From NCBI RefSeq assembly GCF_023055435.1, contig NW_025964372.1:27528001-27592000 (forward strand): a stretch of DNA of 64,000 nucleotides. The letters run 5' to 3'. Every line of letters starts with the position of its first letter. Positions within the stretch are counted from its first letter, which is position 1. The DNA is from Haliotis rufescens. Lineage: Eukaryota. Shown in pieces: positions 2,255 through 47,871 of the stretch. The position numbers were made by a program, and so were the translations under genes. The notes under the pieces were generated by a model, which was not told the origin of the DNA, ran no database searches, and was given only the letters and a program-made list of their open reading frames with translations.

Positions 2255-2676
2255 TGTAACACAACACAAGAAGGCGGTTTGAGGATTACGTAGTTTTAAT
2301 CACAATGGCATATGTACAAGTCAAAGGAAGTGTGCCGTCCTTCCTTCCTCCCTCTAGATACTCACCTGTACCTTAGGGTGCTGAGACCAAGTCTGCCGGT
2401 ATTTGGAAGTCGCCCGGTAAATATATAGTAATGACGGAATGCCAAGCATTTTGTTTTGCACAGGTACTAAAATTTGGTGTGGTCAACTTGAGATTAAATT
2501 GACCATCAAGTGGTGTCCATGACGAGGCACTTAAAATTGTTCCCCTTAAGGTGACATGAAACCACCACTCACTGGTCCACTTGATATGTACTTGACATAT
2601 CCACGGGGTCAGTCGTATTTGGCAAACACTGATAGTGTTACATTAGTCGTATTTGGCAAACACTGATAGTGTTACA
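2255..2676 (-). repeat. 3' LTR (422 bp), copy 1
   Basis: Direct repeat of 10056-10545; TG...CA termini; adjacent PPT; TATA-like tract near 2418-2428 and ATTAAA near 2295 on the minus strand. Confidence 0.95.
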
Positions 2677-2689
2677 TCCGCCCCTTTCT
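2677..2689 (-). promoter_or_regulatory. Polypurine tract (also 24204-24216 and 45551-45563)
   Basis: Minus-strand AGAAAGGGGCGGA immediately precedes the TGTAAC of the 3' LTR. Confidence 0.9.
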
Positions 2690-2928
2690 ACTTGGAAATA
2701 TTGTTGATATTTCCAGGCCTCATAAGTCGATCTTAAAAATACACACAGTTCCATATATACATAAACAAAAAAAAGAGTGTAAATATTTTACAACGATCAT
2801 GCTGTCCGTGACCGGACTTAATCGCTTTTAAAATGTCACTTCGTCACAATCTTGGCCCTCGACCGGCTACAGACACACCATTTTGGTCATCTGTGATCGT
2901 CAGTTCTGCGTTGTGTTCTTCTTTTCAA

Positions 2929-3012
2929 TATATGTATTATGTTCAACTATTGATAGTCACGATATGGCTGAAATATTGCCGATGTGACTTAAAATTTAAC
3001 TCACTCACTCAC
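2929..3012 (+). mobile_element. 84-bp 5'-truncated non-LTR retroposon insertion inside the LTR element
   Basis: (TCAC)n tail; 12-bp TSD tcttcttttcaa at 2917-2928 and 3013-3024; related sequence at ~16529-16584. Confidence 0.8.
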
Positions 3013-3099
3013 TCTTCTTTTCAACTTAGTTCAACTTTATGGTCGTCACCACAAGTTCCAATATGGCCGCCGTCCATCTTCGTCACCAGCCTGTTCATC

Positions 3100-5028
3100 T
3101 TAGTTCATGCAGCAACAATATCGCAACACTGTACTGTTTAGTAGTGGGCATCCAGGCCAGGGTACAGGCGTCGTATGGATGACGTTGTTGGAGGCGCCGA
3201 AGTCTGATCCCCCGTCATCAGTGGTGCAGGTCGCTAAGCCGCTCCTGGAGTCGGTACTCGCGACCTGGATCACATCAGATCCCATCAACTCGAATTCGGG
3301 TGTTTCCCGGGTGTGCTTTCCCCAAGTGAGCATTTTGGATAGCCAAAATTTTCTATATCTTAAAACCATTATCAATATTATTATGACTAGTAACATGATA
3401 CCCCCAACTAACCACTTTTTCCAGTTAATTTTCTTATCCCAACTAATTTCAGTGTTTACACTATGTAATTCATCAATTAAATGACTCATGGATACCGTAT
3501 CTATATTCTGGAGGTGGCTTGGAACTTTCGATATCGTCACATTTCTTAATTTTTCCTTAAAGGGTTTCCATAACAGCATATCTAAAACGTTTGGCATATG
3601 AGGTAGCTGAGCCCAGATCTCATTTAATTCAAACCTGCTTTCATTACGATAAAATGGTAGTAATGTCAAATGATTGTTTGAAGCTGTACAAGAGACGTTT
3701 ACTCGTAACATACCTATTGGTGGGTAAATAGTTATTATCTGTGGATATACTTTTTAACATACTATAGTAAAGTCTAGTTGTTCAGCGGTCGCAATGACCC
3801 ATTGGCCTTCCCAAATATTATCTGCCCTAGGCAGTATCATGTGCATGGTAACTTCCCGTTTACACAAGCTCTTGACTTTATCTAAATCTTTCATGAAGAG
3901 CGCGATCATGAACATCTGACTAAGATTTAGGGGATAAGTCGGGCTGCTTATCATGCGTGATTCTAATTTATATGTGGCAACCATGCCAGCTACTTTAGTA
4001 AATTCATGCGTTTTATCTGAGAGGAGAGGTAGTGGTAAATTATGAATTTTATAAATTTCGTATTGCCCATTATAATCTAATAGTGGAAGTGATATTATTA
4101 TCAAAATCTTTTCCTCATAAACTAAGGTCGAGCATGTTAATGTTCGATAATAATTCCATAATTCCTTTTTCTGGATCTTTTGCCAGTTTATAGCCACTTG
4201 GTAAATGAATATTTATTTCACGTAATAATACTAATAATTCACTTGGAGTGACAGTGCCTGGCGACAAGTGTCCGAGTGATAGAGCATTAAATTGTAATTG
4301 GAGGTGATTGATATAAGACATCAATGTTTGTATTGTTTGTCTTACGTCTTCAATTACTAAATCTATCTTGAGATAATTGTTAGTAGCCCATTCAAGTTTA
4401 TCTATACGCCCCGCAAGAATTCGGGAGATGTTTGCTACATTTACCTCTACTTCCTTGAGATTATCAATAACTGCATTAATTGTTTGTCGGTTCTTCTGAA
4501 CTTGAATCCTTGTTACATTCAAAATAGTGAGTTCTTCATGAACTACATGCGATATGGTTTCTTGGTTCTTAGCAATTTTGTTGATATTGTTTTTGATTGA
4601 ATTTAAATCAGACTCGGATACTGTTCCAAATAGATAACTTAAAGCATCGCCAATAAATGGGATTAATGATCGCTTTGGTCTTATCAACTTCCTGTATTCT
4701 AGAAAACTAACTTCTAGCGAACTTAGTGTATTATTTAGACCCGTAATTTCCTTGTCTAACCTGTAGAAGGTTCCTTCTACTTTGTTAACATCAGTGCTGC
4801 TATGGTAGCGACTGATCAGTCTACGCAAAACTAATGCAACTTCTTCGATATCCTTCCTACATCTTTGAATATAGTCAATATAAGGTTTCATGTCTATTAC
4901 TAGTGCTACAAGCCATTTTGAACAAGTTGTAGAAATATCATTGACCTTTTGAAAAAACACGTTTTCAGAAACTAATAGACTAATAAACCACCAAAACACA
5001 ACACTGTTAATATGGTAAACACACCCAT
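3100..5028 (-). pseudogene. env: env, F-type (baculovirus F/errantivirus-like) class I fusion glycoprotein, disrupted, copy 1
   Basis: ATG at 5028 with hydrophobic leader MGVFTILTVLCF; furin site RPKR followed by fusion peptide SLIPFIGDALSYLFG; heptad-rich region; TM WLVGGIMLLVIIILIMVL; frameshifts near 5000 and 4170; in-frame TAA at 3754-3756. Confidence 0.88.
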
Positions 5029-8000
5029 TTCCTGCAAATATACAGAATAAAAAAACTATATAAAACTGTGACTAACCAAGACTACATACAACTATAATCA
5101 TCAGTTGTACTCAAACATGAATACCATATATGCTCAATACCATATATACAAAACAAACAAGATATGCATGCAGTGCCCGATTATACTACGAAGCCTTATA
5201 GTAACCCGGCTACTGCCTCAAACAACTTCTTAACCTTATCATCAGGGGTTAATTGACGTGTCTCTTTAACTTCATTTACGGATACATTATCATTATCTGA
5301 TGATTCACTTGATCCGTTGTCCTCCGTCGAATTGTCAATAGAGTCACGTCGCCTAGCACTCAAGCGTTTGGCAAGTTGGGCTAACGGAACGTCATTCTCT
5401 GAGTCTGAGTCTGAACGTTCCTGTCTATACCGCTTTGTGATCCTTGACATGGGATCCTTTGATCCTTGTACCTCCTCGTCCGAGGTTGATTCTGAGGATA
5501 GTGATATAACATTATGTTGTTTTCTTCGAGGTCTACCTTCTGTGTCCTTGGGAATTTCCCAATCATCTAGATTAGCAATCCTAAGATGTTCTGCATGAGC
5601 TCGTGTAGTTGATCCATCAAGCTGATTTCGTATGATGTAAGTTACTGGCGATGTTTGTTCAATAACCCTGTAGAACGGCTTCCACCTGTTCTGTAGCTTA
5701 CTCTTCCTTTGATGAAATCTATAGTAGACAGGGTCGCCAACCTTGATTTTGTTTACTGCTCCTGTCGGCATATCGGGCCTGTCTTTCTTTGCTTTCTTCA
5801 TGTTCTTGTGTACTAGAACGAATGCCTTGTGCTGCTGTTGCAGTGCTGTTTTATGTTCTTCGTCACCTGCATACTTACGTCTCGGTCGTAGCAGGTTGTC
5901 AACAGGAAGAACGACGTCACGATTGTACAACAAGAAGTATGGCGAAAACTTGGATGATTCACAGATGTAGAAACGAATTGCAGCCAAGGTTTGATTTAGG
6001 TATAAGTCCCATGTTGTTACGTTGTCATTCAGCTTTTTCGCAAGGACATCATGTAATGTACGATGAAATCGCTCAACTCTTGCATTGGACTGGGGGTGAT
6101 AAAATGACGTCCTGACGTGGTTGATCCCTAATGCTGACAATGTTTCACTGACAACCTTGTTAATATTCTCTGTCCCGTTATCTGTGACAATCTGTAGTGG
6201 ACAGCCAAACCTCGGGAATATCTCCTCTAGTATCAGATGGGCAACTGTCTCTGCTGATTTATCAGGTACTGCATACGCCTCAGGCCAACCGCTGAAGTGG
6301 TCAACGAAGCCGATGATATATTTATTCCCAGATAATGTTGTCGGATAGGGTCCTGAGAGATCCATACTTACCTTCGCAAATGGGTAGGGCGGAATCTCAG
6401 TTTCCTGCAAAGCTGGTTTCTGGGCCTTCATGGTTCTAGATTGACAAGTGATACATTTGCCGATACACTCAGTTATCTCCCTGTAGAGGTTGGGCCAATA
6501 ATATTTCAGTTTTATTGCCTCAAATGTCTTGTCAATCCCCATGTATCCGTTTGCATCATGATATTGCGTGACCACGATCTGTTTGAACTTTTCGGGTACA
6601 TATAACCTGGGCGATGGATCATCCTCAATTGCACTGACATAGTACAATAGATCATTTATGACTAAGTACCTTTTTAAGTGTGACTTGTCACCGTGACCTT
6701 TTTCCAGTTGTTCTTTGATGCTCGTGATGTTTTCATCCCTATCCTGCTCTTTCTGCATGTCTATATCCATTTCCATTCTGCGTGGCAATGAAGATGCCTC
6801 GGGAATTGGCAAATCGCAGCTAGCAAAATTCTTAGGGTTGAATTTGGTGGGGTTCAATGCCTCAATCCTCAGACTGTTGTCGGGTCGATCAATCTCAATG
6901 TCTTCCTCATTAGGCCCGCAGCCGTTATCTGTGTTTGATTTGCCCCGAGATAGTAGATCTGCACAAGTGTTGTTCTTTCCTGCCATATACCCGATCTTAC
7001 AGGTATAGCCCGCGATTCCCAGTGCCCATAGTTTTTCTACCTGTTCACCCTCACTTTCATGTGTCTGAACCAGACACGCCCCTATACAGCTGTTACTGGC
7101 GTCCGTGTACAGAGTGTATGGCCTATTCGGGTCGGGATAGGTCAGTAATGGTACAACCGTCAGACTGTCTTTCAAGAAATCAAAAGACTTTTGACATTCT
7201 TCAGACCACGAGAATCTCGCAAATCTCTTGGTAAGTTTTACCATGGGTTCAGCAATATTTGAGAAATTGGGGATAAATCGGCGGTAATAACTGCACATCC
7301 CTATGAACCCTCGTACTTCTTTTACTGACCTTGGGGCTTCCATTGACCTAATGGCCTCTACCTTTTGGTTGTCAGGTTTTATTCCATCTTGATTGATGAC
7401 AAAACCTAAGTACTGAGTTTCCTCCTTGGCAAAGCTACATTTTGACAACTTGAGTTTTAGTGAATGTTGGCGGAGTCGTTCATAAACTGTCTCGATATGA
7501 AGTAAATGTTGTTCTTCCGACTTTGAGAATATCAAAATATCGTCTAGGTAGGCTATTGCAAATGCATCGAGACCCTGTAAAACTTCATTCATAAGTTCCA
7601 TAAAAACTGCTGGAGCATTACAAAGTCCAAAAGGCATCACGTTAAATTCAAAAAGACCTCTATGACAAGCAAAAGCAGTTTTTTCTTTATCTTCATCATC
7701 CATTTGAGGGGTAAAGTCGTTGAAATAGGACGGCTAATTTTGTTCAAAACCCTAAAGTCTACACAAAAACGCTTCGATCCCTATTTTTTGTCAACGTCGA
7801 CAATGGGGAAACTCCATGGTGACCTAGAACGTCGAATGATCTGAGCATCTAACATGTCATCGATCGCCTTATCTACAACTTTGCGTTTGTTAAGAGGAGT
7901 TCGATATGGCTTCATCTTGATCGGAACATTGTCACCTGTGTCTATCTTCATACGTACAGTTTCTGTCTGCCCTAAGTCTAAATCACTCTTTGCAAATAAA

Positions 8001-8777
8001 CCCTTGTTTTGAGACACTAAATCAGTTAACCTTGATTTCAAATTAACTGGAGCGTCAATGTCAACATTGAGATCACAGGATATGTCCCTATCAGCTAATT
8101 CATCGCTACGCTCCTTAGCGTCCCTAGTACGCAACCTCTCTTCAACCTAAATGTACGGTTGGTATTGTTGACTAGCAGTAATGGGACATTCCTATGTTTG
8201 TCAATCTTAACAATAGAATTTCCTATGAGTAGACCTGGTTCATTTGCTGGGTAACTCTTTTCAATTGTGGAGATTTCATACGTGCTTGATGTTTCAAAAT
8301 ATGGTCTATTTTTAATCTTTGCCCTTAAGATATTTCTACACTGAGGTTTTACTGTTGTATCCGCTGCTAACCTGACTAGAGAAGATATATGGATATCTTC
8401 CTCTAGCGGTACATAAGTTTTCCCTACTGTTAAGCTACCCAAGTCGAAATACACCCTAACACCTGCCTGTGTCAACCAATCGTGTCCTAATATAAGATTT
8501 CTGTTCATGTTTCCTACAACATAGAAGGTATAGGAAAGATTGACGCCTCTCATCCTAAAGTGAACTTTCACATTCCCATCTACCTGTAACGAATTCCCAT
8601 TAACCCCTTGTAAAGCGACTTTCTTTTTGTTTAACGGAAATCTATCTTTTATTGAATCGTACACCCTACGATGCATTATCGACACTTCAGCGCCAGAATC
8701 AATTAAACACCTCCATTGTTTTTTTCCTATTTTGATACTACACGAATTTGGTCTCCCCACTTCATTTATTGAATGTA

Positions 8778-8923
8778 CTGGGCCATTTGTCGCCTTCTCT
8801 CCCTCATCGGCTTCTGGGCCATTTGTCGCCTTCTCTCCCTCATCGGCTTCTGGGCCATTTGTCGCCTTCTCTCCCTCATCGGCTTCTGGGCCATTTGTCG
8901 CCTTCTCTCCCTCATCGGCTTCT
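8778..8923. repeat. 36-bp x4 perfect tandem repeat at the start of pol (EADEGEKATNGP); also 30107-30252 and 51454-51599
   Basis: ctgggccatttgtcgccttctctccctcatcggctt repeated four times. Confidence 0.95.
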
Positions 8924-8949
8924 TTATGAGGAAGAGAATTTAGTTTCCC
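8903..8949 (-). promoter_or_regulatory. gag-pol -1 ribosomal frameshift signal (G GGA AAC slippery heptamer plus stem-loop)
   Basis: Minus strand CAG GGA AAC TAA ends gag; pol is open in the -1 frame; 12-13 bp stem UCUCUUCCUCAU/AUGAGGGAGAGA begins 4-5 nt downstream. Confidence 0.8.
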
Positions 8950-9899
8950 TGGTTTTGTTTTCTTGGTGGTCTGTTTGGACAATTTCGTTTAAAGTGGCCC
9001 GATTGATTGCATAGCCAATATACCCTGATCTCTTGCTCTCTCTCATTAACCGCATAAACACGTTTTGATCTGCAATCCTAAGCCCGGTGACCTGGCTTCC
9101 CGCATGAGAAACAATTACGACGCTGTCTAGCATGATCAACGTCCATAGGCACTTCTCGCCTCCCGCTATTCGAATCGTGCCCTCTACTATTAAAATCATG
9201 CCCTCGGCTACTCGGTTTTCCCAACCTGAGTTCGAATCTAGCCCTAATGTTTTGTTCACGCGTGGCCGAGGCCACTGCTTCTTTGAGGGATGTGGGGTTT
9301 TCCCTCATAAGTTTTTTTCTGCATGTACTCATGACTCAAGCCATCTCTGAAAAAACCTATCAATTGTCTTTGGATGGCGGGATTATCTTCACCGTCCTGC
9401 CCTAATCCTTCATAAGCCTCTTCGGCCAAGTTTAGTAGTCTTTCAGCATAAATCTGAACACCCTCACTATGTTTTTGTTTGACCGCCCTTAAAAACATAA
9501 ATGCGTGTTGTGGGTCGCTTATTTCAGCAAACCTGCTCGTTAGCTCTGCCCTTAACTCCTTCCATGTTTTGGCAGGATTATCATCCATATAGCATTGCAC
9601 GAAGTCGCTTACAGCGCCATCACAACTCTGAAAAGCAATTAGCTTTTTACTGGCGTCTTGATTTGCGCCAGTTAGCAATGCATACTTTTCTACAGATTTG
9701 ATCCATTTTTTTAAATCTTTCGGGTTCCCCACAAATGTTTTATAGCTTGATTCACGCCCTGTGCGCTTAGCGTTGTATTTACAGCAGCTAGCCTCCCGTT
9801 TATTTCATTTCCCTGTGCCCCTAATGTTGAAGTTACTGTTGATAACTGCCCCGTTATTTCTCCCGCTAACCCTTGTAAGAATTGTGCATATTCTGCCAT
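8940..9899 (-). pseudogene. gag: gag with two CCHC zinc knuckles, disrupted, copy 1
   Basis: ATG at 9899 (MAEYAQFLQG); capsid-like region WKELRAELTSRF; CFSCGKPGHRA*DC and (Y)WLCNQSGHFKRNC; two frameshifts and one premature stop. Confidence 0.9.
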
Positions 9900-10014
9900 T
9901 TTGCTCACTTAAGTACTTGCAAAAACCCAAAGAATCACCTTTTTGCGAGTCCCGGGACCAATTCCCTCGATCCTAGTCGTTTCCTGGGATCCCTCTCCTT
10001 CTCTCCTTAAGGTG

Positions 10015-10032
10015 ATCCTGGTCTCGGCACCA
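10015..10032 (-). promoter_or_regulatory. Primer binding site, tRNA-His-like (also 31344-31361 and 52692-52709)
   Basis: Minus-strand TGGTGCCGAGACCAGGAT; from memory 17/18 match to the complement of an invertebrate tRNA-His 3' end; tRNA-Phe is the next candidate. Confidence 0.7.
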
Positions 10033-10055
10033 GTTTACGTAACCCCGCCCCTTCT

Positions 10056-10545
10056 TGTAACACAACACAAGAAGGCGGTTTGAGGATTACGTAGTTTTAA
10101 TCACAATGGCATATGTACAAGTCAAAGGAAGTGTGGCGTCCTTCCTTCCTCCCTCTAGATACTCGCCTGTACTTTAGGGTGCTGAGACCAAGTCTGCCGG
10201 TATTTGGAAGTCGCCCGGTATATATAGTAATGATGGAATGCGAAGCATTTTGTTTTGCACAGGTACTAAAATTTGGTGTGGTCAACTTGAGATTAAATTG
10301 TCCATCAAGTGGTGTCCATGACGAGGCACTTAAAAATGTTCCCCTTAAGGTGACATGAAACCACCACTCACTGGTCCACTTGATATGTACTTGACATATC
10401 CATGGGGTCTTCACGGGGTCAGTCGTATTTGGCAAACACTGATAGTGTTACATCAGTCGTATCTGGCAAACACTGATAGTGTTATGATATGTACTTGACA
10501 TATCCACGGTGTCAGTCGTATCTGGCAAACACTGATAGTGTTACA
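10056..10545 (-). repeat. 5' LTR (490 bp), copy 1
   Basis: Direct repeat of 2255-2676 with extra U3 duplications; followed by CACA TSD. Confidence 0.95.
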
Positions 10546-11824
10546 CACAACAATAATTACGTTGAAATATCAAACAACCTGCAGCTGTTTCCACTAAATC
10601 GAGCGACTACATTACTTAATGTGTGCAACATCTTACAAGGCAATAAGTGAACAGAGCTCACAATAATACTCCCACATTGAACATATTTCTAAGTTCGTGA
10701 ACCGTAAAAACGAAGAGGATTGATATAATCCTATGGCGATTTTGCATTTAGATTGGTTGTGTAGAACAGCGTGGTCCCACAGTCATTGAATTGATTAAAA
10801 AGATAAAGGATATTTGGATAATGTTGCCAAATAAGATGTTGATCTCATCGGCGCCATAATGGGTGAGGTTATTTCATCAAACGTCTGAATTTCCTGGTCA
10901 AAAGGCGTCGAAACTGTTTTTTTATAAATTAAACTGTGTTTCATACTTATGTTGAAGTACACAATGGCTGAATATACAGTGCCAGGTAAATAAATATGTA
11001 CAAAGGACATAAATATAAAACACCCCTCTATGATTAATTAGCAGGGGTACAGATAAGTTGATGTTTTGAGACATTTTTGTAATGTTATTTAAATTTTTCT
11101 GAATATATAATTTATTTTTAATTTGAAAGAATATAGGTAATAAAAGCGAAAAAACACTTTACATTTTAGTAAGACATGTCCATTGTAAGATTACGACTCT
11201 ATCGTGAGGATGTGAAGAATCTCCAAAAAATATCCTAATACCATTTTTCTGTAGAAAAAATAGTGCTCTATTCTTCTTCACAAATACGGCTTATAAAACG
11301 ATTAAACAAACATTCAAGAAATATTCATTCGGTTATGATAAATACCCTGAGTATCCTTCCTCAAAGCAAAGTTAGCGCATATATAGTTACGTCCTTTGAT
11401 CCATGTAATCTTTTAAATTTTAGTGCATATTGTCTGCAATGGGGAAAGTAAAATCAGATATTCTCATGACACCAAACCACCCTAGTGCCTGTCTCTTCTA
11501 AGGGAGATTTATTTGCTTGTTGCTTATCGCTGCTCTCAACACTGTTCCTTTTGTAATGGAGGATTGGTATACAGCCATATAGTACTTTGTATCTGAAGTC
11601 CGTTCAGCATCATTCGAACAATGTGAACTTTATTATCAAATTGTATCACATATGTCATGTGACTGACACCAATCAGAATGAACACCTGTTTAATTAAACT
11701 TAATTAAACGTAGTTAATAGCTTAATTTCTGCACCGTAAATCATATCAAACTGTCAGGTAAATAGAAATTACACATGGCCCACTGTGGTTAATTCTGCCT
11801 CGTCGAGATGATTAAAATCTTTGG

Positions 11825-11876: not shown

Positions 11877-14800
11877 ATGCTGCTCATCTCTCTGTTCGTG
11901 GTTGTGTTGGGGGTTGCTGAGACACATGGTAAGTATTTCAACCGAATTTTCTACCATAATTTTCCAACTCTTATTAGGAATAGTTCGGTGTTGACATGAA
12001 ACTGCAGGTTAAGTCATAATTGTGTATCCCAGTTATACATATATTATATACAGGTAGAGACGGATCATGCTAAAAGTTGCTTTGCTCGGACAAATACACA
12101 ATGTTTATGTTCATGATCATGTATGAAAGGTTACTTTAGAACTATATACTCGCCAACAGGCATATAACCATGCATATACATACGTATGTATCAGTTTTAC
12201 TGTGTAGCTAGAATGTGTGTAAACTGTCGGGCACAAGACTTGTTTGATGGTTTGATGGTGACTAAACATGCTGTAATTGATATGGGTATCATAGTTGTGT
12301 TTCGGATCTCAAGTAATGTTTCGGATCTACATATATAATTTTAAGGTATGACTAAGATACCACAAGCATGGTATAAGAACACTGTATACGTTTCCCCAGA
12401 ATCCAGGGTCGCAGATAATGCAGGGTTTTGCAACATTGGCGCTAATGGAGTTTTAACCATTGAGGCCACCCTTGCTCTGTGTTTGAAGGTATAGAGGAAA
12501 ATATAGGTTTTTAGCTTTGGGATTTAATTTACCTACAGCTGTGATTGTTTGTCCCCAGGTGCTATGATCCCTGTCCTTGGGTCACAGGTCACTTCCTCCT
12601 CAGTCTTCACCTTCGGCTCCACGAACTTCGTTCCACAGTTTGCCGTTGACGGCGGATTTGGCACCGACTTCATCGCTGACAACACTACGTTTGCAACGGC
12701 TGTTGGAGACACAATGCCCTACATGGACATTGATCTGGGCAGCAACTTCCTTCTCGTCTCCGTCACCATCACCAACAGGGGTGACTGCTGTGGTAAGTAG
12801 AGTGAGATGGTTAGGTGTATTTATTTCTTTTAAAGACAGATAAATAGAATTACATACTGTCAAATGATCTGATTGTCCACAGATTCGTCCTCACATCATG
12901 AAACCCATATCGCCACTTTTTGGGCATTTCATCGATGTTTTGAGCTTGAAAGTAGTTCTTGCTCGATGACCTTATTTGAATATTTATTGGGTCAAATACT
13001 GAACAACAAAAGTTTTTTATCTAATCTGAAACAATTTCAGTTTGCAACAGACTCCTGTAAGTGTTCAAATGGTTTAATTTGCCATACTGACTTCAGAAAA
13101 TGCGTGATTTCATAAAAATAACATGAACATGCCAAAATGTCAGTTTACAAATCAATAGCATGTGTGTCCACCTCTGGTTGCAAAGCAAGCAACACATCTT
13201 CGTCACATGGAATGGACCAGGCGTCGCACATAGTCCTGTGGGATATCTGTCCATAACTGCTGGAGCATGTTTCGAAGTTCCTGGAGTGTCTGTGGAACAC
13301 GTGGTTGACGTCGAAGGCGCCGATCCATCTCATCCCACATGTGCTCGATTGGTGAGAGATCAGGGGAGCGAGCCGGCCAGGGGATGACATTCACGTTGTT
13401 TTAAATCCTGAACAAGCCGAGCAATATGAGGCCGGGCGTTGTCATGTTGAAAGGTAATGCCTGGACCATGATGACGCAAAAACGGTAGAACAAAAGGGCC
13501 GATGATCTCGTCGAGGTAGCGTTTTCCATTGAGATTTCCCTCTACCACTATCAAACGGGTCCTCTGTCTTGCTGTCATCCCACCCCATACCACAACGCTG
13601 CCGTTCCCGAACCGATCTTCTTCCATGCCACAATGATTAACGTAACGTTCACCTCGACGTCCGTCAATCGCTTAGGCTGAGGTGAAAACGAGAATCTTCA
13701 ATGAATAGAACTTGTCCCCACTGCATGGCCGTCCAGCGTAGACGCTGTCTGCACCACTGTAGACATGCTTTACAGTGGATTTCTGTCAAAATTGGACGCC
13801 TGGCGGGTCTTCTGGCGACAATCCCTGCACATCCAGTTGTCTTGTCGATTATTAGTTACGCGTGACTGCCACTCCGAGGACGGTCTCTGACTGCATTCGT
13901 CTGTAGGCAACGTTACCATAAACACCAAATGTTGTTTCTGTGGACGTTAAATTGTCTTGCAACATCACTTTGACTCGATCCTGCTTCAAGCATACCAATG
14001 GCTCGCAGACGCTCATTTTCGGGCAGGCGTGGCATTTCGTAATGTTGAATAATTGCGTAATTTTGTTGTTTTTCTGAGTGGTTGTTGTCAGCACGATGCT
14101 AAACAATGCATATGGAATCCCGTTAACGCACGTGTTTTTATACCTATTCTTCGGAAGTGAAATGCATGGGACTTGCATAAAAGTCATCTTTTGCTTGGAA
14201 TGCATGCTTTTCTGGAGCAGTTGCGTTTTTGTGACTTGATTCCATACATGTACTACAATAGTGAAACCAAACTTTACTTGTTTGAAATATACACTAAAAT
14301 ATTGGTGTCACAGGAACTTTTGTTTTTGAGTATAGTAACAAGTTGATTGGATTGCTTTTTCACATCAATAACACTATGATATTTATCACATATTACCTAA
14401 ATAAATAGAACGGTGTCACGTTTAACTTTCTCTATCGTTCTCAATGCTGTTCTTTGCTACCACCAAAGCAGTCTATTCAGATTAAGGCGTGTTGGTTGAC
14501 TTATTCTGCCCTTGGTAAACAGTAAGGTAGACTCGGGATGATTATCGTGGTCCCTCATAGCTGTAGATTTCTTTTACATCAGAAACATGTACAGAACTGA
14601 GATCATACAAAGCATATATATCTTCAAGAACATTCTATGGAGAGCGTAGACCTAGAATTACAACACATTCCTGCTGAACTTGATATCAGTCATCAACGCT
14701 CCAGTTCCCAAGTCACAGTATGTCCACAGGACCCTGTGTTAAACTGTGTAACCTGGCAGATTGTATGGTATGGTGTCATGCCCCGACGGCGTGGATATTT

Positions 14801-23715: not shown

Positions 23716-24626
23716 GATTATTTACAGGCTTCCATCGTATAGGTGGAACATTGATGAGTGTGGCTTTAGGCAACAGACACATGTAACACAACACAAGAAG
23801 GCGGTTTGAGGATTACGTAGTTTTAATCACAATGGCATATGTACAAGTCAAAGGAAGTGTGCCGTCCTTCCTTCCTCCCTCTAGATACTCACCTGTACCT
23901 TCGGGTGCTGAGACCAAGTCTGCCGGTATTTGGAAGTCGCCCGGTAAATATATAGTAATGATGGAATGCGAAGCATTTTGTTTTGCACAGGTACTAAAAT
24001 TTGGTGTGGTCAACTTGAGATTAAATTGACCATCAAGTGGTGTCCATGACGAGGCACTTAAAATTGTTCCCCTTAAGGTGACATGAAACCACCACTCACT
24101 GGTCCACTTGATATGTACTTGACATATCCACGGGGTCAGTCGTATTTGGCAAACACTGATAGTGTTACATTAGTCGTATTTGGCAAACACTGATAGTGTT
24201 ACATCCGCCCCTTTCTACTTGGAAATATTGTTGATATTTCCAGGCCTCATAAGTCGATCTTAAAAATACACACAGTTCCATATATATATATACAAAAAAA
24301 AGAGTGTAAATATTTTACAACGATCATGCTGTCCGTGACCGGACTTAATCGCTTTTAAAATGTCACTTCGTCACAATCTTGGCCCTCGACCGGCTACAGA
24401 CACACCATTATGGTCATCTGTGATCGTCAGTTCTGCGTCGTGTTCTTCTTTTCAATATATGTATTATGTTCAACTATTGTTAGTCACGATATGGCTGAAA
24501 TATTGCCGATGTGACTTAAAATTTAACTCACTCACTCACTCTTCTTTTCAACTTAGTTCAACTTTATGGTCGTCACCACAAGTTCCAATATGGCCGCCGT
24601 CCATCTTCGTCACCAGCCTGTTCATC

Positions 24627-26357
24627 TTAGTTCATGCAGCAACAATATCGCAACACTGTACTGTTTAGTAGTGGGCATCCAGGCCAGGGTACAGGCGTCG
24701 TATGGATGACGTTGTTGGAGGCGCCGAAGTCTGATCCCCCGTCATCAGTGGTGCAGGTCGCTAAGCCGCTCCTGGAGTCGGTACTCGCGACCTGGATCAC
24801 ATCAGATCCCATCAACTCGAATTCGGGTGTTTCCCGGGTGTGCTTTCCCCAAGTGAGCATTTTGGATAGCCAAAATTTTCTATATCTTAAAACCATTATC
24901 AATATTATTATGACTAGTAACATGATACCCCCAACTAACCACTTTTTCCAGTTAATTTTCTTATCCCAACTAATTTCAGTGTTTACACTATGTAATTCAT
25001 CAATTAAATGACTCATGGATACCGTATCTATATTCTGGAGGTGGCTTGGAACTTTCGATATCGTCACATTTCTTAATTTTTCCTTAAAGGGTTTCCATAA
25101 CAGCATATCTAAAACGTTTGGCATATGAGGTAGCTGAGCCCAGATCTCATTTAATTCAAACCTGCTTTCATTACGATAAAATGGTAGTAATGTCAAATGA
25201 TTGTTTGAAGCTGTACAAGAGACGTTTACTCGTAACATACCTATTGGTGGGTAAATAGTTATTATCTGTGGATATACTTTTTAACATACTATAGTAAAGT
25301 CTAGTTGTTCAGCGGTCGCAATGACCCATTGGCCTTCCCAAATATTATCTGCCCTAGGCAGTATCATGTGCATGGTAACTTCCCGTTTACACAAGCTCTT
25401 GACTTTATCTAAATCTTTCATGAAGAGCGCGATCATGAACATCTGACTAAGATTTAGGGGATAAGTCGGGCTGCTTATCATGCGTGATTCTAATTTATAT
25501 GTGGCAACCATGCCAGCTACTTTAGTAAATTCATGCGTTTTATCTGAGAGGAGAGGTAGTGGTAAATTATGAATTTTATAAATTTCGTATTGCCCATTAT
25601 AATCTAATAGTGGAAGTGATATTATTATCAAAATCTTTTCCTCATAAACTAAGGTCGAGCATGTTAATGTTCGATAATAATTCCATAATTCCTTTTTCTG
25701 GATAATTGTTAGTAGCCCATTCAAGTTTATCTATACGCCCCGCAAGAATTCGGGAGATGTTTGCTACATTTACCTCTACTTCCTTGAGATTATCAATAAC
25801 TGCATTAATTGTTTGTCGGTTCTTCTGAACTTGAATCCTTGTTACATTCAAAATAGTGAGTTCTTCATGAACTACATGCGATATGGTTTCTTGGTTCTTA
25901 GCAATTTTGTTGATATTGTTTTTGATTGAATTTAAATCAGACTCGGATACTGTTCCAAATAGATAACTTAAAGCATCGCCAATAAATGGGATTAATGATC
26001 GCTTTGGTCTTATCAACTTCCTGTATTCTAGAAAACTAACTTCTAGCGAACTTAGTGTATTATTTAGACCCGTAATTTCCTTGTCTAACCTGTAGAAGGT
26101 TCCTTCTACTTTGTTAACATCAGTGCTGCTATGGTAGCGACTCATCAGTCTACGCAAAACTAATGCAACTTCTTCGATATCCTTCCTACATCTTTGAATA
26201 TAGTCAATATAAGGTTTCATGTCTATTACTAGTGCTACAAGCCATTTTGAACAAGTTGTAGAAATATCATTGACCTTTTGAAAAAACACGTTTTCAGAAA
26301 CTAATAGACTAATAAACCACCAAAACACAACACTGTTAATATGGTAAACACACCCAT
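24627..26357 (-). pseudogene. env: env, F-type fusion protein, disrupted, copy 2
   Basis: As copy 1, minus 66 codons. Confidence 0.87.
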
Positions 26358-26524
26358 TTCCTGCAAATATACAGAATAAAAAAACTATATAAAACTGTGA
26401 CTAACCAAGACTACATACAACTATAATCATCAGTTGTACTCAAACATGAATACCATATATGCTCAATACCATATATACAAAACAAACAAGATATGCATGC
26501 AGTGCCCGATTATACTACGAAGCC

Positions 26525-29500
26525 TTATAGTAACCCGGCTACTGCCTCAAACAACTTCTTAACCTTATCATCAGGGGTTAATTGACGTGTCTCTTTAACT
26601 TCATTTACGGATACATTATCATTATCTGATGATTCACTTGATCCGTTGTCCTCCGTCGAATTGTCAATAGAGTCACGTCGCCTAGCACTCAAGCGTTTGG
26701 CAAGTTGGGCTAACGGAACGTCATTCTCTGAGTCTGAGTCTGAACGTTCCTGTCTATACCGCTTTGTGATCCTTGACATGGGATCCTTTGATCCTTGTAC
26801 CTCCTCGTCCGAGGTTGATTCTGAGGATAGTGATATAACATAATGTTGTTTTCTTCGAGGTCTACCTTCTGTGTCCTTGGGAATTTCCCAATCATCTAGA
26901 TTAGCAATCCTAAGATGTTCTGCATGAGCTCGTGTAGTTGATCCATCAAGCTGATTTCGTATGATGTAAGTTACTGGCGATGTTTGTTCAATAACCCTGT
27001 AGAACGGCTTCCACCTGTTCTGTAGCTTACTCTTCCTTTGATGAAATCTATAGTAGACAGGGTCGCCAACCTTGATTTTGTTTACTGCTCCTGTCGGCAT
27101 ATCGGGCCTGTCTTTCTTTGCTTTCTTCATGTTCTTGTGTACTAGAACGAATGCCTTGTGCTGCTGTTGCAGTGCTGTTTTATGTTCTTCGTCACCTGCA
27201 TACTTACGTCTCGGTCGTAGCAGGTTGTCAACAGGAAGAACGACGTCACGATTGTACAACAAGAAGTATGGCGAAAACTTGGATGATTCACAGATGTAGA
27301 AACGAATTGCAGCCAAGGTTTGATTTAGGTATAAGTCCCATGTTGTTACGTTGTCATTCAGCTTTTTCGCAAGGACATCATGTAATGTACGATGAAATCG
27401 CTCAACTCTTGCATTGGACTGGGGGTGATAAAATGACGTCCTGACGTGGTTGATCCCTAATGCTGACAATGTTTCACTGACAACCTTGTTAATATTCTCT
27501 GTCCCGTTATCTGTGACAATCTGTAGTGGACAGCCAAACCTCGGGAATATCTCCTCTAGTATCAGATGGGCAACTGTCTCTGCTGATTTATCAGGTACTG
27601 CAAACGCCTCAGGCCAACCGCTGAAGTGGTCAACGAAGCCGATGATATATTTATTCCCAGATAATGTTGTCGGATAGGGTCCTGAGAGATCCATACTTAC
27701 CTTCGCAAATGGGTAGGGCGGAATCTCAGTTTCCTGCAAAGCTGGTTTCTGGGCCTTCATGGTTCTAGATTGACAAGTGATACATTTGCCGATACACTCA
27801 GTTATCTCCCTGTAGAGGTTGGGCCAATAATATTTCAGTTTTATTGCCTCAAATGTCTTGTCAATCCCCATGTATCCGTTTGCATCATGATATTGCGTGA
27901 CCACGATCTGTTTGAACTTTTCGGGTACATATAACCTGGGCGATGGATCATCCTCAATTGCACTGACATAGTACAATAGATCATTTATGACTAAGTACCT
28001 TTTTAAGTGTGACTTGTCACCGTGACCTTTTTCCAGTTGTTCTTTGATGCTCGTGATGTTTTCATCCCTATCCTGCTCTTTCTGCATGTCTATATCCATT
28101 TCCATTCTGCGTGGCAATGAAGATGCCTCGGGAATTGGCAAATCGCAGCTAGCAAAATCCTTAGGGTTGAATTTGGTGGGGTTCAATGCCTCAATCCTCA
28201 GACTGTTGTCGGGTCGATCAATCTCAATGTCTTCCTCATTAGGCCCGCAGCCGTTATCTGTGTTTGATTTGCCCCGAGATAGTAGATCTGCACAAGTGTT
28301 GTTCTTTCCTGCCATATACCCGATCTTACAGGTATAGCCCGCGATTCCCAGTGCCCATAGTTTTTCTACCTGTTCACCCTCACTTTCATGTGTCTGAACC
28401 AGACACGCCCCTATACAGCTGTTACTGGCGTCCGTGTACAGAGTGTATGGCCTATTCGGGTCGGGATAGGTCAGTAATGGTACAACCGTCAGACTGTCTT
28501 TCAAGAAATCAAAAGACTTTTGACATTCTTCAGACCACGAGAATCTCGCAAATCTCTTGGTAAGTTTTACCATGGGTTCAGCAATATTTGAGAAATTGGG
28601 GATAAATCGGCGGTAATAACTGCACATCCCTATGAACCCTCGTACTTCTTTTACTGACCTTGGGGCTTCCATTGACCTAATGGCCTCTACCTTTTGGTTG
28701 TCAGGTTTTATTCCATCTTGATTGATGACAAAACCTAAGTACTGAGTTTCCTCCTTGGCAAAGCTACATTTTGACAACTTGAGTTTTAGTGAATGTTGGC
28801 GGAGTCGTTCATAAACTGTCTCGATATGAAGTAAATGTTGTTCTTCCGACTTTGAGAATATCAAAATATCGTCTAGGTAGGCTATTGCAAATGCATCGAG
28901 ACCCTGTAAAACTTCATTCATAAGTTCCATAAAAACTGCTGGAGCATTACAAAGTCCAAAAGGCATCACGTTAAATTCAAAAAGACCTCTATGACAAGCA
29001 AAAGCAGTTTTTTCTTTATCTTCATCATCCATTTGAGGGGTAAAGTCGTTGAAATAGGACGGCTAATTTTGTTCAAAACCCTAAAGTCTACACAAAAACG
29101 CTTCGATCCCTATTTTTTGTCAACGTCGACAATGGGGAAACTCCATGGTGACCTAGAACGTCGAATGATCTGAGCATCTAACATGTCATCGATCGCCTTA
29201 TCTACAACTTTGCGTTTGTTAAGAGGAGTTCGATATGGCTTCATCTTGATCGGAACATTGTCACCTGTGTCTATCTTCATACGTACAGTTTCTGTCTGCC
29301 CTAAGTCTAAATCACTCTTTGCAAATAAACCCTTGTTTTGAGACACTAAATCAGTTAACCTTGATTTCAAATTAACTGGAGCGTCAATGTCAACATTGAG
29401 ATCACAGGATATGTCCCTATCAGCTAATTCATCGCTACGCTCCTTAGCGTCCCTAGTACGCAACCTCTCTTCAACCTAAATGTACGGTTGGTATTGTTGA

Positions 29501-30278
29501 CTAGCAGTAATGGGACATTCCTATGTTTGTCAATCTTAACAATAGAATTTCCTATGAGTAGACCTGGTTCATTTGCTGGGTAACTCTTTTCAATTGTGGA
29601 GATTTCATACGTGCTTGATGTTTCAAAATATGGTCTATTTTTAATCTTTGCCCTTAAGATATTTCTACACTGAGGTTTTACTGTTGTATCCGCTGCTAAC
29701 CTGACTAGAGAAGATATATGGATATCTTCCTCTAGCGGTACATAAGTTTTCCCTACTGTTAAGCTACCCAAGTCGAAATACACCCTAACACCTGCCTGTG
29801 TCAACCAATCGTGTCCTAATATAAGATTTCTGTTCATGTTTCCTACAACATAGAAGGTATAGGAAAGATTGACGCCTCTCATCCTAAAGTGAACTTTCAC
29901 ATTCCCATCTACCTGTAACGAATTCCCATTAACCCCTTGTAAAGCGACTTTCTTTTTGTTTAACGGAAATCTATCTTTTATTGAATCGTACACCCTACGA
30001 TGCATTATCGACACTTCAGCGCCAGAATCAATTAAACACCTCCATTGTTTTTTTCCTATTTTGATACTACACGAATTTGGTCTCCCCACTTCATTTATTG
30101 AATGTACTGGGCCATTTGTCGCCTTCTCTCCCTCATCGGCTTCTGGGCCATTTGTCGCCTTCTCTCCCTCATCGGCTTCTGGGCCATTTGTCGCCTTCTC
30201 TCCCTCATCGGCTTCTGGGCCATTTGTCGCCTTCTCTCCCTCATCGGCTTCTTTATGAGGAAGAGAATTTAGTTTCCC
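26525..30278 (-). pseudogene. pol: pol, disrupted, copy 2 (835-aa ORF 26525-29032)
   Basis: As copy 1. Confidence 0.95.
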
Positions 30279-31228
30279 TGGTTTTGTTTTCTTGGTGGTC
30301 TGTTTGGACAATTTCGTTTAAAGTGGCCCGATTGATTGCATAGCCAATATACCCTGATCTCTTGCTCTCTCTCATTAACCGCATAAACACGTTTTGATCT
30401 GCAATCCTAAGCCCGGTGACCTGGCTTCCCGCATGAGAAACAATTACGATGCTGTCTAGCATGATCAACGTCCATAGGCACTTCTCGCCTCCCGCTATTC
30501 GAATCGTGCCCTCTACTATTAAAATCATGCCCTCGGCTACTCGGTTTTCCCAACCTGAGTTCGAATCTAGCCCTAATGTTTTGTTCACGCGTGGCCGAGG
30601 CCACTGCTTCTTTGAGGGATGTGGGGTTTTCCCTCATAAGTTTTTTTCTGCATGTACTCATGACTCAAGCCATCTATGAAAAAACCTATCAATTGTCTTT
30701 GGATGGCGGGATTATCTTCACCGTCCTGCCCTAATCCTTCATAAGCCTCTTCGGCCAAGTTTAGTAGTCTTTCAGCATAAATCTGAACACCCTCACTATG
30801 TTTTTGTTTGACCGCCCTTAAAAACATAAATGCGTGTTGTGGGTCGCTTATTTCAGCAAACCTGCTCGTTAGCTCTGCCCTTAACTCCTTCCATGTTTTG
30901 GCAGGATTATCATCCATATAGCATTGCACGAAGTCGCTTACAGCGCCATCACAACTCTGAAAAGCAATTAGCTTTTTACTGGCGTCTTGATTTGCGCCAG
31001 TTAGCAATGCATACTTTTCTACAGATTTGATCCATTTTTTTAAATCTTTCGGGTTCCCCACAAATGTTTTATAGCTTGATTCACGCCCTGTGCGCTTAGC
31101 GTTGTATTTACAGCAGCTAGCCTCCCGTTTATTTCATTTCCCTGTGCCCCTAATGTTGAAGTTACTGTTGATAACTGCCCCGTTATTTCTCCCGCTAACC
31201 CTTGTAAGAATTGTGCATATTCTGCCAT
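30269..31228 (-). pseudogene. gag: gag, disrupted, copy 2
   Basis: As copy 1. Confidence 0.9.
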
Positions 31229-33205
31229 TTTGCTCACTTAAGTACTTGCAAAAACCCAAAGAATCACCTTTTTGCGAGTCCCGGGACCAATTCCCTCGAT
31301 CCTAGTCGTTTCCTGGGATCCCTCTCCTTCTCTCCTTAAGGTGATCCTGGTCTCGGCACCAGTTTACGTAACCCCGCCCCTTCTTGTAACACAACACAAG
31401 AAGGCGGTTTGAGGATTACGTAGTTTTAATCACAATGGCATATGTACAAGTCAAAGGAAGTGTGGCGTCCTTCCTTCCTCCCTCTAGATACTCGCCTGTA
31501 CTTTAGGGTGCTGAGACCAAGTCTGCCGGTATTTGGAAGTCGCCCGGTATATATAGTAATGATGGAATGCGAAGCATTTTGTTTTGCACAGGTACTAAAA
31601 TTTGGTGTGGTCAACTTGAGATTAAATTGTCCATCAAGTGGTGTCCATGACGAGGCACTTAAAAATGTTCCCCTTAAGGTGACATGAAACCACCACTCAC
31701 TGGTCCACTTGATATGTACTTGACATATCCATGGGGTCTTCACGGGGTCAGTCGTATTTGGCAAACACTGATAGTGTTACATCAGTCGTATCTGGCAAAC
31801 ACTGATAGTGTTATGATATGTACTTGACATATCCACGGTGTCAGTCGTATCTGGCAAACACTGATAGTGTTACACACAACAATAATTACGTTGAAATATC
31901 AAACAACCTGCAGCTGTTTCCACTAAATCGAGCGACTACATTACTTAATGTGTGCAACATCTTACAAGGCAATAAGTGAACAGAGCTCACAATAATACTC
32001 CCACATTGAACATATTTCTAAGTTCGTGAACCGTAAAAACGAAGAGGATTGATATAATCCTATGACGATTTTGCATTTAGATTGGTTGTGTAGAACAGCG
32101 TGGTCCCACAGTCATTGAATTGATTAAAAAGATAAAGGATATTTGGATAATGTTGCCAAATAAGATGTTGATCTCATCGGCGCCATAATGGGTGAGGTTA
32201 TTTCATCAAACGTCTGAATTTCCTGGTCAAAAGGCGTCGAAACTGTTTTTTTATAAATTAAACTGTGTTTCATACTTATGTTGAAGTACACAATGGCTGA
32301 ATATACAGTGCCAGGTAAATAAATATGTACAAAGGACATAAATATAAAACACCCCTCTATGATTAATTAGCAGGGGTACAGATAAGTTGATGTTTTGAGA
32401 CATTTTTGTAATGTTATTTAAATTTTTCTGAATATATAATTTATTTTTAATTTGAAAGAATATAGGTAATAAAAGCGAAAAAACACTTTACATTTTAGTA
32501 AGACATGTCCATTGTAAGATTACGACTCTATCGTGAGGATGTGAAGAATCTCCAAAAAATATCCTAATACCATTTTTCTGTAGAAAAAATAGTGCTCTAT
32601 TCTTCTTCACAAATACGGCTTATAAAACGATTAAACAAACATTCAAGAAATATTCATTCGGTTATGATAAATACCCTGAGTATCCTTCCTCAAAGCAAAG
32701 TTAGCGCATATATAGTTACGTCCTTTGATCCATGTAATCTTTTAAATTTTAGTGCATATTGTCTGCAATGGGGAAAGTAAAATCAGATATTCTCATGACA
32801 CCAAACCACCCTAGTGCCTGTCTCTTCTAAGGGAGATTTATTTGCTTGTTGCTTATCGCTGCTCTCAACACTGTTCCTTTTGTAATGGAGGATTGGTATA
32901 CAGCCATATAGTACTTTGTATCTGAAGTCCGTTCAGCATCATTCGAACAATGTGAACTTTATTATCAAATTGTATCACATATGTCATGTGACTGACACCA
33001 ATCAGAATGAACACCTGTTTAATTAAACTTAATTAAACGTAGTTAATAGCTTAATTTCTGCACCGTAAATCATATCAAACTGTCAGGTAAATAGAAATTA
33101 CACATGGCCCACTGTGGTTAATTCTGCCTCGTCGAGATGATTAAAATCTTTGGTATAAATATAGAGACACCAACCCTATCTGACAAATCATCCCGATTGT
33201 CTACA

Positions 33206-44600: not shown

Positions 44601-45973
44601 TACATTGTATATAGTCCCTGACCACTACAAAAACTTCATAATGAGTAAAAATCCTTCTCTAGCAGAAGTAAACATACATGTATATACATGTTACGGTTTA
44701 AATATCCTTAGGGATTCCGGATTGAATTGGTCCCTTGGGCCGTTGGCTAAATATCTAACATCATCATAAACCCTATAGCAACCTATAGCAGCTAAATAGA
44801 TCGGGTGGTCAGACTCAGTGACTCGGTCAGTGTCGTGTCTTTGTCGTGCTGAGACGGCGTGGATCGTTGCTCAAAATACCAATCACTGGATTGTCTGGTC
44901 TAGATTCGATTATTTACAGGCTGCCATCATATAGGTGGAACACTGATGAGTGTGGCTTTAGGCAACAGACACAACAATAATAATCAAACACCCTGCATCT
45001 GTTTCCACTAAATCGAGCGACTACATTACTTAATGTGTGCAACATCTTACAAGGCAATAAGTGATTATTTACAGGCTTCCATCGTATAGGTGGAACATTG
45101 ATGAGTGTGGCTTTAGGCAACAGACACATGTAACACAACACAAGAAGGCGGTTTGAGGATTACGTAGTTTTAATCACAATGGCATATGTACAAGTCAAAG
45201 GAAGTGTGCCGTCCTTCCTTCCTCCCTCTAGATACTCACCTGTACCTTCGGGTGCTGAGACCAAGTCTGCCGGTATTTGGAAGTCGCCCGGTAAATATAT
45301 AGTAATGATGGAATGCGAAGCATTTTGTTTTGCACAGGTACTAAAATTTGGTGTGGTCAACTTGAGATTAAATTGACCATCAAGTGGTGTCCATGACGAG
45401 GCACTTAAAATTGTTCCCCTTAAGGTGACATGAAACCACCACTCACTGGTCCACTTGATATGTACTTGACATATCCACGGGGTCAGTCGTATTTGGCAAA
45501 CACTGATAGTGTTACATTAGTCGTATTTGGCAAACACTGATAGTGTTACATCCGCCCCTTTCTACTTGGAAATATTGTTGATATTTCCAGGCCTCATAAG
45601 TCGATCTTAAAAATACACACAGTTCCATATATATATATACAAAAAAAAGAGTGTAAATATTTTACAACGATCATGCTGTCCGTGACCGGACTTAATCGCT
45701 TTTAAAATGTCACTTCGTCACAATCTTGGCCCTCGACCGGCTACAGACACACCATTATGGTCATCTGTGATCGTCAGTTCTGCGTCGTGTTCTTCTTTTC
45801 AATATATGTATTATGTTCAACTATTGTTAGTCACGATATGGCTGAAATATTGCCGATGTGACTTAAAATTTAACTCACTCACTCACTCTTCTTTTCAACT
45901 TAGTTCAACTTTATGGTCGTCACCACAAGTTCCAATATGGCCGCCGTCCATCTTCGTCACCAGCCTGTTCATC

Positions 45974-47704: not shown

Positions 47705-47871
47705 TTCCTGCAAATATACAGAATAAAAAAACTATATAAAACTGTGACTAACCAAGACTACATACAACTATAATCATCAGTTGTACTCAAACATGAATAC
47801 CATATATGCTCAATACCATATATACAAAACAAACAAGATATGCATGCAGTGCCCGATTATACTACGAAGCC

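Follow-up and report, generated by a model that had tools for sequence, protein, structure and literature searches.

Errantiviruses in the wide sense of Chary and Hayashi (eLife 2026; PMC13524379) carry, after pol, a third open reading frame with an F-type or gB-type ENV. Their survey lists 1512 of these across metazoans; the 46 from molluscs are all F-type. For elements outside insects it draws on genome sequence and on predicted structure. All 10 mollusc elements given there as His_GUG fall in RT clade G. The element table has no Haliotis row, and of the three Haliotis assemblies in the genome list, two are marked 'yes - No intact copies'. In the main text, neither 'splic' nor 'subgenomic' occurs and env expression is unaddressed. 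In Drosophila errantiviruses (gypsy, ZAM, Idefix), an F-type env likewise follows the integrase, and a spliced subgenomic env RNA is the rule (PMC4276936; bioRxiv 2023.08.03.551782), with the env frame spliced onto an upstream AU or Gag peptide (bioRxiv 2023.08.03.551782).

The locus described here lies in a stretch of 64,000 nt of Haliotis rufescens (contig NW_025964372.1, positions 27,528,001 to 27,592,000; hereafter the window). With a probability of about 0.88, it is a dead copy of a gag-pol-env Ty3/gypsy element that likely belongs to the molluscan 'ancient errantivirus' group and whose third gene, now broken, is homologous to F-type proteins and was likely expressed from a spliced message in the active ancestor. 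By itself, the element is one further, decayed member of an already published class; the view of an earlier note on this DNA, that the lineage is poorly described outside insects, is outdated by the numbers of the survey. The new point is a copy of a sister family, L050, which appears to be a re-integrated spliced copy and, as such, evidence at the DNA level for transcription and splicing of env.

Structure and integration of the element

The element reads on the minus strand, as do its genes and signals below, and occupies positions 2255–10545. These limits, already proposed in the earlier note, are exact, with an LTR pair inside them and CACA on both sides. The 5′ LTR (10056–10545; 490 bp, with 34-bp tandem repeats) and the 3′ LTR (2255–2676; 422 bp) align with 411 matches and 9 mismatches (97.9% alike) and have the termini TGTAAC..GTTACA. 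Together with a primer-binding site (PBS), a polypurine tract (PPT, 2677–2693), and a target-site duplication, these TG..CA ends are those of a Ty3/gypsy LTR element, and the layout is LTR-PBS-gag-PR-RT-RH-IN-env-PPT-LTR. The duplication is the 4-bp CACA at 2251–2254, with its twin at 10546–10549, and a neighboring repeat unit (L072) shows the empty site, with one CACA. The agreement between duplication and empty site rules out an assembly gap or a chimeric element.

The PBS (10015–10032, 23 nt inside the LTR end) is of the tRNA-His(GUG) type, as assigned via supplement 1 of PMC13524379, where the same 12-mer is classed His_GUG with one mismatch; it is the 12-mer of Tcro_errantivirus_1. In the His-type rows of that source, the offset from the LTR end is 8–21 nt in 9 out of 10 and 0 in the remaining one. 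A search of the genome with the Rfam tRNA model gave 11 matches among 63 scored candidates, and the primer tRNA was assigned independently of that result. Insect errantiviruses, in contrast, rely chiefly on Ser, Lys or Leu tRNAs, and their RNase H is duplicated. In the 'ancient errantivirus' clade, a 'mini' domain instead of a pseudo-RNase H comes after RNase H; in the sister pol L053, ~135 residues separate the RNase H and H2C2 domains, with no second RNase H match in that sequence. The closest known systems, by features rather than by direct sequence comparison, are the mollusc 'ancient errantiviruses' with ENV_F, tRNA-His(GUG), RT clade G and IN clade Z (Gmag_errantivirus_1, Scin_errantivirus_1, Tcro_errantivirus_1; PMC13524379). 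As described there, they share with the window element the gag-pol-env order, an env of the F type that has a furin site and a fusion peptide, a size of ~8.5–9 kb, and a mollusc host. The likely clade placement relies on PBS type and molluscan neighbors.

Through a 21-kb segmental duplication, the insertion is found three times within the window. The second copy (23782–31874, minus strand) has lost ~198 nt more in env; the third is at 45129–53222 (minus strand), also with further env loss. The same site and the same lesions rule out three independent insertions, and neighboring repeat units are without the insertion. The element lies ~1.3 kb upstream of a signal-peptide exon of an F5/8-type-C (fucolectin-like) gene.

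gag and pol

The gag gene (8970–9899) retains a capsid-like part and a CCHC knuckle, with two frame changes (near 9810–9741 and near 9300). The start of pol (8095–8988) contains a 36-bp tandem repeat (4.1 copies, 8778–8923) and an aspartic protease (RVP, E = 5e-8), followed by RT, RNase H and integrase (5196–8146), with YLDD and the integrase D-D-E present. The order of domains is that of gypsy-type pol: RVP, RVT_1, RT_RNaseH_2, Integrase_H2C2, rve, and Integrase_p58_C. In pol, there are a frame change near 8090 and losses of ~79 nt near 7705 and of ~190 nt in RNase H near 7031. Unlike the intact elements of PMC13524379, defined there by continuous, untruncated GAG, POL and ENV frames, the window copy is broken in all three genes. 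Judged from its reading frames, it is a decayed member, none of whose proteins can be made whole.

The env gene and its relatives

The third open reading frame sits after the integrase. Its signal-peptide-like start, MGVFTILTVLCFGGLLVY (5028–4972), is in a frame different from the rest of env and ends at a stop. Piece 1 (4166–4966) holds F2-like helices, the furin site RPKR (4681–4670), directly followed by the fusion peptide SLIPFIGDALSYLFG (4669–4625), and a long HR1-like helix (~4507–4280), predicted over 76 residues (model residues 154–229) with block-mean pLDDT mostly 87–98. Piece 2 (3100–4161) contains a Cys-rich region, a TM segment (3414–3355, hydropathy 2.75) and the tail. The signal peptide, the RPKR directly before a fusion peptide and the TM anchor proposed in the earlier note are all in place; its Cys-containing region is present in a damaged form. 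It counted three lesions, but there are four, which split the gene: a change of frame near 4975 and another near 4165, a stop at 3754–3756, and a ~30-codon deletion near 3948. Three of the six conserved Cys (P0001 positions 379–478) are lost, two in the deletion and one by replacement.

Unbroken env relatives in Haliotis, including the same genome, are 53%–55% identical to the window env, and the nearest named ones are Haliotis proteins (about 52%–55% identity). In the best 120 of 192 matches, all those named are molluscan or from bacterial bins of 'Ca. Thiodiazotropha', which are clam symbionts. In the env tree, the window row groups with Haliotis rows at a support of 93–94, under the starred level. 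The furin site and the Cys pattern are kept in the relatives, with R/K-x-x-R at the aligned cleavage site in 95 out of 109 rows. Scored one by one against a profile built from 110 natural homologues, the two env pieces reach E-values of 1e-99 and 1e-81.

The earlier note had claimed that a Ty3/Gypsy element in an apparently non-insect genome carries the gene of an F-type class I fusogen, to be checked against Baculo_F and by structure prediction. With the relatives, both checks come out in its favor. Baculo_F is passed by all six unbroken relatives tested (E 1e-17 to 6e-21) and by both sister-family frames, whereas the window pieces (one of them translated through its stop, written as X) match no env family of Pfam above its cut-off. 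Their best match is PF07253 Gypsy (E 1e-5, 24.7 bits vs. a cut-off of 27.5), a weak likeness to Drosophila errantivirus env over the cleavage site and HR1. The fold evidence comes from a model of P0001, a relative 55% identical to the window env (pLDDT 78.8). Against a viral library, this model places baculovirus F at ranks 1, 2 and 5 (E 6e-23 to 4e-21) and, against the PDB, it matches RSV F (E 4e-10). In the VIA search, the model aligns with RSV/hMPV F over 365–383 residues (Z 9.3–10.2); the top rank there goes to an unrelated helical bundle (Z 10.4 over 99 residues), in a tie with RSV F. Piece 1 of the window alone (267 residues, predicted as mostly long helices) gave no row at E ≤ 0.001 out of 266. 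The alignment profile of env also matches PDB 9w4d and 9w4c, 'fusion protein' (E 2e-19 and 2e-17); a search of the open-access literature listed nothing that names these entries, and another listed nothing on the abalone herpesvirus protein.

By profile and by the predicted fold of its relative, the third gene of the element is a broken homologue of F-type class I fusion proteins. It would share with baculovirus F and pneumo/paramyxovirus F the predicted fold of the relative, the furin site with fusion peptide, the long HR1 helix, the Cys-rich beta region and the C-terminal TM. Unlike them, it is retrotransposon-borne, with 10%–16% identity and a predicted fusion role. Within two sister families, env dN/dS is 0.11–0.28 in all eight pairs, and it is 0.23 between piece 1 of the window and L064; over piece 1, dS from the window family to the sister family is saturated. 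Within its own family, the C-terminal piece of the window is under weak or no constraint (dN/dS 0.83 and 0.51), as expected after decay.

Splice signals and a spliced copy

In the window element, the leader has two candidate donors within 9907–9938 (AAG|GTGAT at 9938 and GTGAG at 9908), and a candidate acceptor, a pyrimidine tract with CAG, lies at 5032–5033, 4 nt before the env ATG; all are predicted only. Both donors are kept in the five copies of the family examined, and the acceptor context recurs in L062 and L066. Unlike in Drosophila, the env ATG and signal peptide would lie wholly past the acceptor.

The donor of the window family is less canonical than that of the sister family, where the unspliced copy L049 has TTGG|GTAAGT at 4623 and TTTCAG|AGAG at 6767. 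Another copy of the sister family, L050, joins leader to env exactly at these GT..AG sites, and the intervening stretch is missing. In the 2.2-kb stretch of L049, the acceptor is the sole pyrimidine-rich YAG and the donor one of four GTAAG. L050 keeps both full LTRs (562 matches, 2 mismatches and one gap), the PBS, and a CTTG duplication; full LTRs with a 4-bp duplication rule out a LINE-made processed copy. Of the 14 elements with a PBS match, 13 have a donor-like site 75–94 nt downstream of the PBS start; the one without is L050. By its sequence, L050 reads as the DNA trace of an env message that had been spliced. As it lacks exactly one intron-like stretch, env was likely made from a spliced message, and the same expression is likely for the active ancestor of the window family.

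Genome searches, whose counts are lower bounds, gave no spliced copy of the window family among 5 env starts and 10 leaders and none in a distant family. The leader-to-env join is absent from the listed contigs of four sequencing runs, and such contigs can show presence, not absence. Unspliced contigs that span the L049 donor and acceptor come from three runs whose RNA nature is a guess; among the sequencing runs matching L049, none is listed as RNA and 14 are only guessed to be so. Judged by titles and abstract openings, the open-access papers listed do not report a spliced copy of env in any mollusc. L050 would imply env splicing of the kind found in insect errantiviruses and in vertebrate retroviruses, with the RNA reaching the germ line, and it bears on the env expression of the surveyed elements. 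It gives an exact junction traceable in RNA and a simple screen elsewhere, a PBS within ~100 nt of the env start.

Life cycle and alternative readings

In the active ancestor, a full-length RNA would give Gag and Gag-Pol, with reverse transcription primed by tRNA-His, and a spliced RNA would give Env with its signal peptide. Cleavage by furin at RPKR would expose the fusion peptide, and Env may then refold like RSV or baculovirus F and fuse particles with neighboring cells, for example of the germ line. Integration with a 4-bp duplication was followed by lesions in all three genes and, later, by the triplication inside the 21-kb host repeat. A potentially infectious ancestor is a reasonable reading of the purifying selection on env and of the spliced-copy fossil.

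The join in L050 could be a chance DNA deletion that says nothing on env expression. Internal deletions are common in these families, only one of 35 matches spans the join (a single locus, in the sister family, with one base ambiguous), and the sequencing contigs listed for the four runs do not contain it. But the two ends of the missing stretch coincide exactly with a GTAAGT donor and with the region's sole pyrimidine-rich YAG, with the env ATG 7 nt downstream, at rough odds of a few per million for a random deletion and a few per 100,000 over about ten deleted copies; the other deleted copies (L049, L052, L054, L055) keep donor and acceptor. We consider such a deletion improbable. Still less probable is domestication of this env by the host, or a regulatory role of the locus for the neighboring lectin-like gene array: the element was retained through triplication at its distance from the fucolectin-like exon, but its env has four lesions, with more lost in copies 2 and 3, and other repeat units do without the insertion altogether.

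Less easily set aside, though still unlikely in our view, is an env that acted only inside the cell or in passage between cells of the gonad, or that had already become a passenger, so that the ancestor would not have been infectious as a particle in any wider sense. In favor of this reading, the evidence here consists of gene sequences and predicted structures, and the discussion of PMC13524379 gives infectivity outside insects as a possibility. Against a mere passenger stand the purifying selection on env across copies, the furin site and Cys pattern kept in relatives, and the spliced-copy fossil, evidence that fits soma-to-germline and between-animal passage alike. With a spliced, F-type env in the ancestor as the preferred reading, we suggest very tentatively that molluscan errantiviruses package and re-integrate spliced env RNA, and that pol-less, env-keeping satellites lately spread most env here and may supply Env in trans to pol-carrying helpers, as a split two-component endogenous retrovirus. 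Pol-less copies that keep env in this genome are the spliced L050, a gag-PR-env copy with identical LTRs (L049) and a short form shared by L052, L054 and L055.

Organization and decay of the element

A single LTR element has integrated at positions 2255–10545 of the window, on the minus strand, and has decayed. Its LTRs (10056–10545 and 2255–2676) end in TGTAAC..GTTACA and show 9 mismatches over 420 aligned positions, with three gaps; CACA flanks the element on both sides and an empty insertion site with one CACA is present in a neighbouring host repeat unit. The 18-nt primer-binding site lies 23 nt inside the LTR (10015–10032, minus strand) and a polypurine tract just before the 3′ LTR (minus strand). 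Pfam domains occur in the gypsy order (gag, CCHC knuckle, protease, RT, RNase H, integrase), with every gene broken: gag carries two frame changes, and pol a frame change near 8090 and losses of about 79 nt in RT and about 190 nt in RNase H. The start of pol holds an in-frame 36-bp repeat (4.1 copies, 8778–8923). Elsewhere in the genome, an LTR-internal repeat of a related element has, in the 3′ LTR, grown into an extended array (L062:9145–10000), and six primer-site matches at an exact spacing of 4152 bp (G000:C13:4200418–4221195) mark, judging by sequence, tandemly repeated copies of a fragment of an element.

Env-carrying Ty3/gypsy elements are not, as the earlier note had it, poorly described outside insects: the survey of Chary and Hayashi (PMC13524379), in the parts drawn on here, catalogues 1512 across metazoans. 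Its 46 mollusc rows all have ENV_F and 10 have a His_GUG primer site, these 10 all in RT clade G; in its classification a 12-mer of the window primer site is His_GUG with one mismatch. Within those same parts, the element table contains no Haliotis element and the main text no mention of splicing. The kind is therefore already known, and the window copy is a new decayed member.

An F-type envelope protein

All the features named in the earlier note are found in env, the third gene: a hydrophobic start (5028), RPKR followed by SLIPFIGDALSYLFG (4681–4625), a long helix and a TM segment (3414–3355), all on the minus strand. Its three lesions become four (two frame changes, one stop and about 30 lost codons); the deletion removes two conserved cysteines, and a third is substituted. 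The proposed match to Baculo_F is missed by the two window fragments, for which no Pfam env family exceeds its cut-off (best, Gypsy env, E 1e-5), but is made by all six unbroken relatives tested. Piece 1 folded alone gave no significant match in a fold search. The family assignment thus rests on natural unbroken relatives.

Homologues are numerous (2690 cluster representatives at E ≤ 0.001), and a profile of 110 relatives matches the window pieces at E 1e-99 and 1e-81. The structure compared was an AlphaFold model of the unbroken relative P0001 (pLDDT 78.8), in place of the window's own Env. Its best match among viral models is baculovirus F (E 6e-23), and among solved structures RSV F is matched at E 4e-10. 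VIA with this model gave Z 10.2 across about 380 residues (rmsd 5.4–5.6), tied by a 99-residue helical-bundle match. Homologue profile, Baculo_F in relatives and modelled fold together argue that the F-type reading is correct. Rank 11 of the fold search is A0A145VUZ2 of Abalone herpesvirus Taiwan/2005, an uncharacterised protein of 801 residues (E 5e-18, 12% identity), no closer to the P0001 fold than baculovirus F; a literature search for this protein found no paper.

The nearest named relatives are molluscan for both env and pol, and the closest for env are Haliotis proteins (52–55%). A 22-row env tree places the window piece in a group (support 93–94) together with sister copies, unnamed rows and Haliotis proteins. 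An abalone-type gastropod is the likely host. Some close pol/env relatives (P0163, P0174, P0182, P0301 and similar) carry the label of bacterial metagenome bins ('Ca. Thiodiazotropha') and are likely mis-binned host-mollusc DNA.

A sister copy with an exact loss

The locus L050:6158–9821 (G000:C605) reads LTR, PBS, short leader, env, LTR. It is flanked by a CTTG duplication, its LTRs differ at 2 of 564 positions, and env remains open up to and including the TM, after which its tail is altered. Compared with its relative L049, precisely 4623–6767 (L049 numbering) is absent, a stretch bounded by GT..AG that starts with GTAAGT and ends with a pyrimidine tract and CAG; the env ATG follows 7 nt later. 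The acceptor is the sole pyrimidine-rich YAG in that stretch, the donor one of four GTAAG. The likely source of L050 is a spliced env RNA that enzymes of the element itself copied and integrated. Of the 14 elements in which a PBS was matched, 13 have a donor-like site at a similar position, and all three families are represented; in the window, candidate donors are predicted at 9938 and 9908 and a candidate acceptor, clear by sequence, at 5033–5032 (minus strand).

L050 alone spans the join among 35 matches, and it alone among the loci scanned has a PBS 85 nt from an env start. Against this reading, L050 is one locus, of the sister family. Three runs guessed to be of RNA have contigs that cross the L049 donor and acceptor unspliced, and none listed in four sequencing runs has the leader-to-env join.

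By analogy with Drosophila errantiviruses and F proteins (PMC4276936 and bioRxiv 2023.08.03.551782, each in part), the env message of the active ancestor would have been spliced and its Env cut by furin and refolded as a class I protein; as in the errantiviruses, particles may have passed into the germ line. The infectious ancestor envisaged earlier is unproven. Through the spliced sister copy and the pol-less, env-keeping copies, expression of env outside insects can be tested directly.

Env-carrying families in the genome

Piece 1 has at least 69 matches in the genome (125 of 221 candidates scored); families were sorted from 19 sequence stretches that surround 18 of the matched loci. Copies of the window's family share about 90–97% DNA identity, and the search for intact ones returned, among those examined, only broken or deleted copies. 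The sister family (about 54% env identity) has open env frames of 641–697 codons at four loci; env identity to the distant family is about 29%. Env is under constraint among relatives, with dN/dS of 0.11–0.28 in every one of the eight pairs formed within the sister or the distant family; the window's own family gives 0.23 over piece 1, but 0.51 and 0.83 over the C-terminal piece. Distant-family loci (L058, L059, L067, L112) have a similar primer site and, in some copies, long open frames; at E 0.01 the L058 env did not match Baculo_F.

L049:3917–9766 (G000:C79) is a gag-protease-env element with RT, RNase H and integrase absent; its 605-bp LTRs are identical and its env frame is open over 676 codons. 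In run X9 (organism B), one contig continues for 82 letters beyond the position at which L049 departs from the full-length sequence, so this pol-less form seems present in another sample too. Four loci (L052, L054, L055, L085) share a short internal form (PBS to env 1.41–1.46 kb; longer in L057), with env and both splice sites retained, pol entirely absent and gag largely so. L052 is 91–92% identical to L054 and L055, and the form is, on these sequences, a spread non-autonomous sublineage.

The host repeat array

Duplication of the 21.3-kb unit that contains it (98.9–99.9% identity) has left the element in three copies in the window; older units without it, 88–97% alike, lie on either side. 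The left 4 kb of unit 1 is 98.9–99.3% identical, compared with 99.9% elsewhere, which suggests unequal crossing-over or conversion. Units of about 21 kb are arrayed in tandem across the window (1–64000) and L068–L072, and they carry a fucolectin-like gene of F5/8 type C (weak Pfam match) with several exons, the first of them near 11877. A short frame at 13360–13671 (minus strand) is, from motifs judged by eye, what we take to be a Tc1/mariner transposase fragment.
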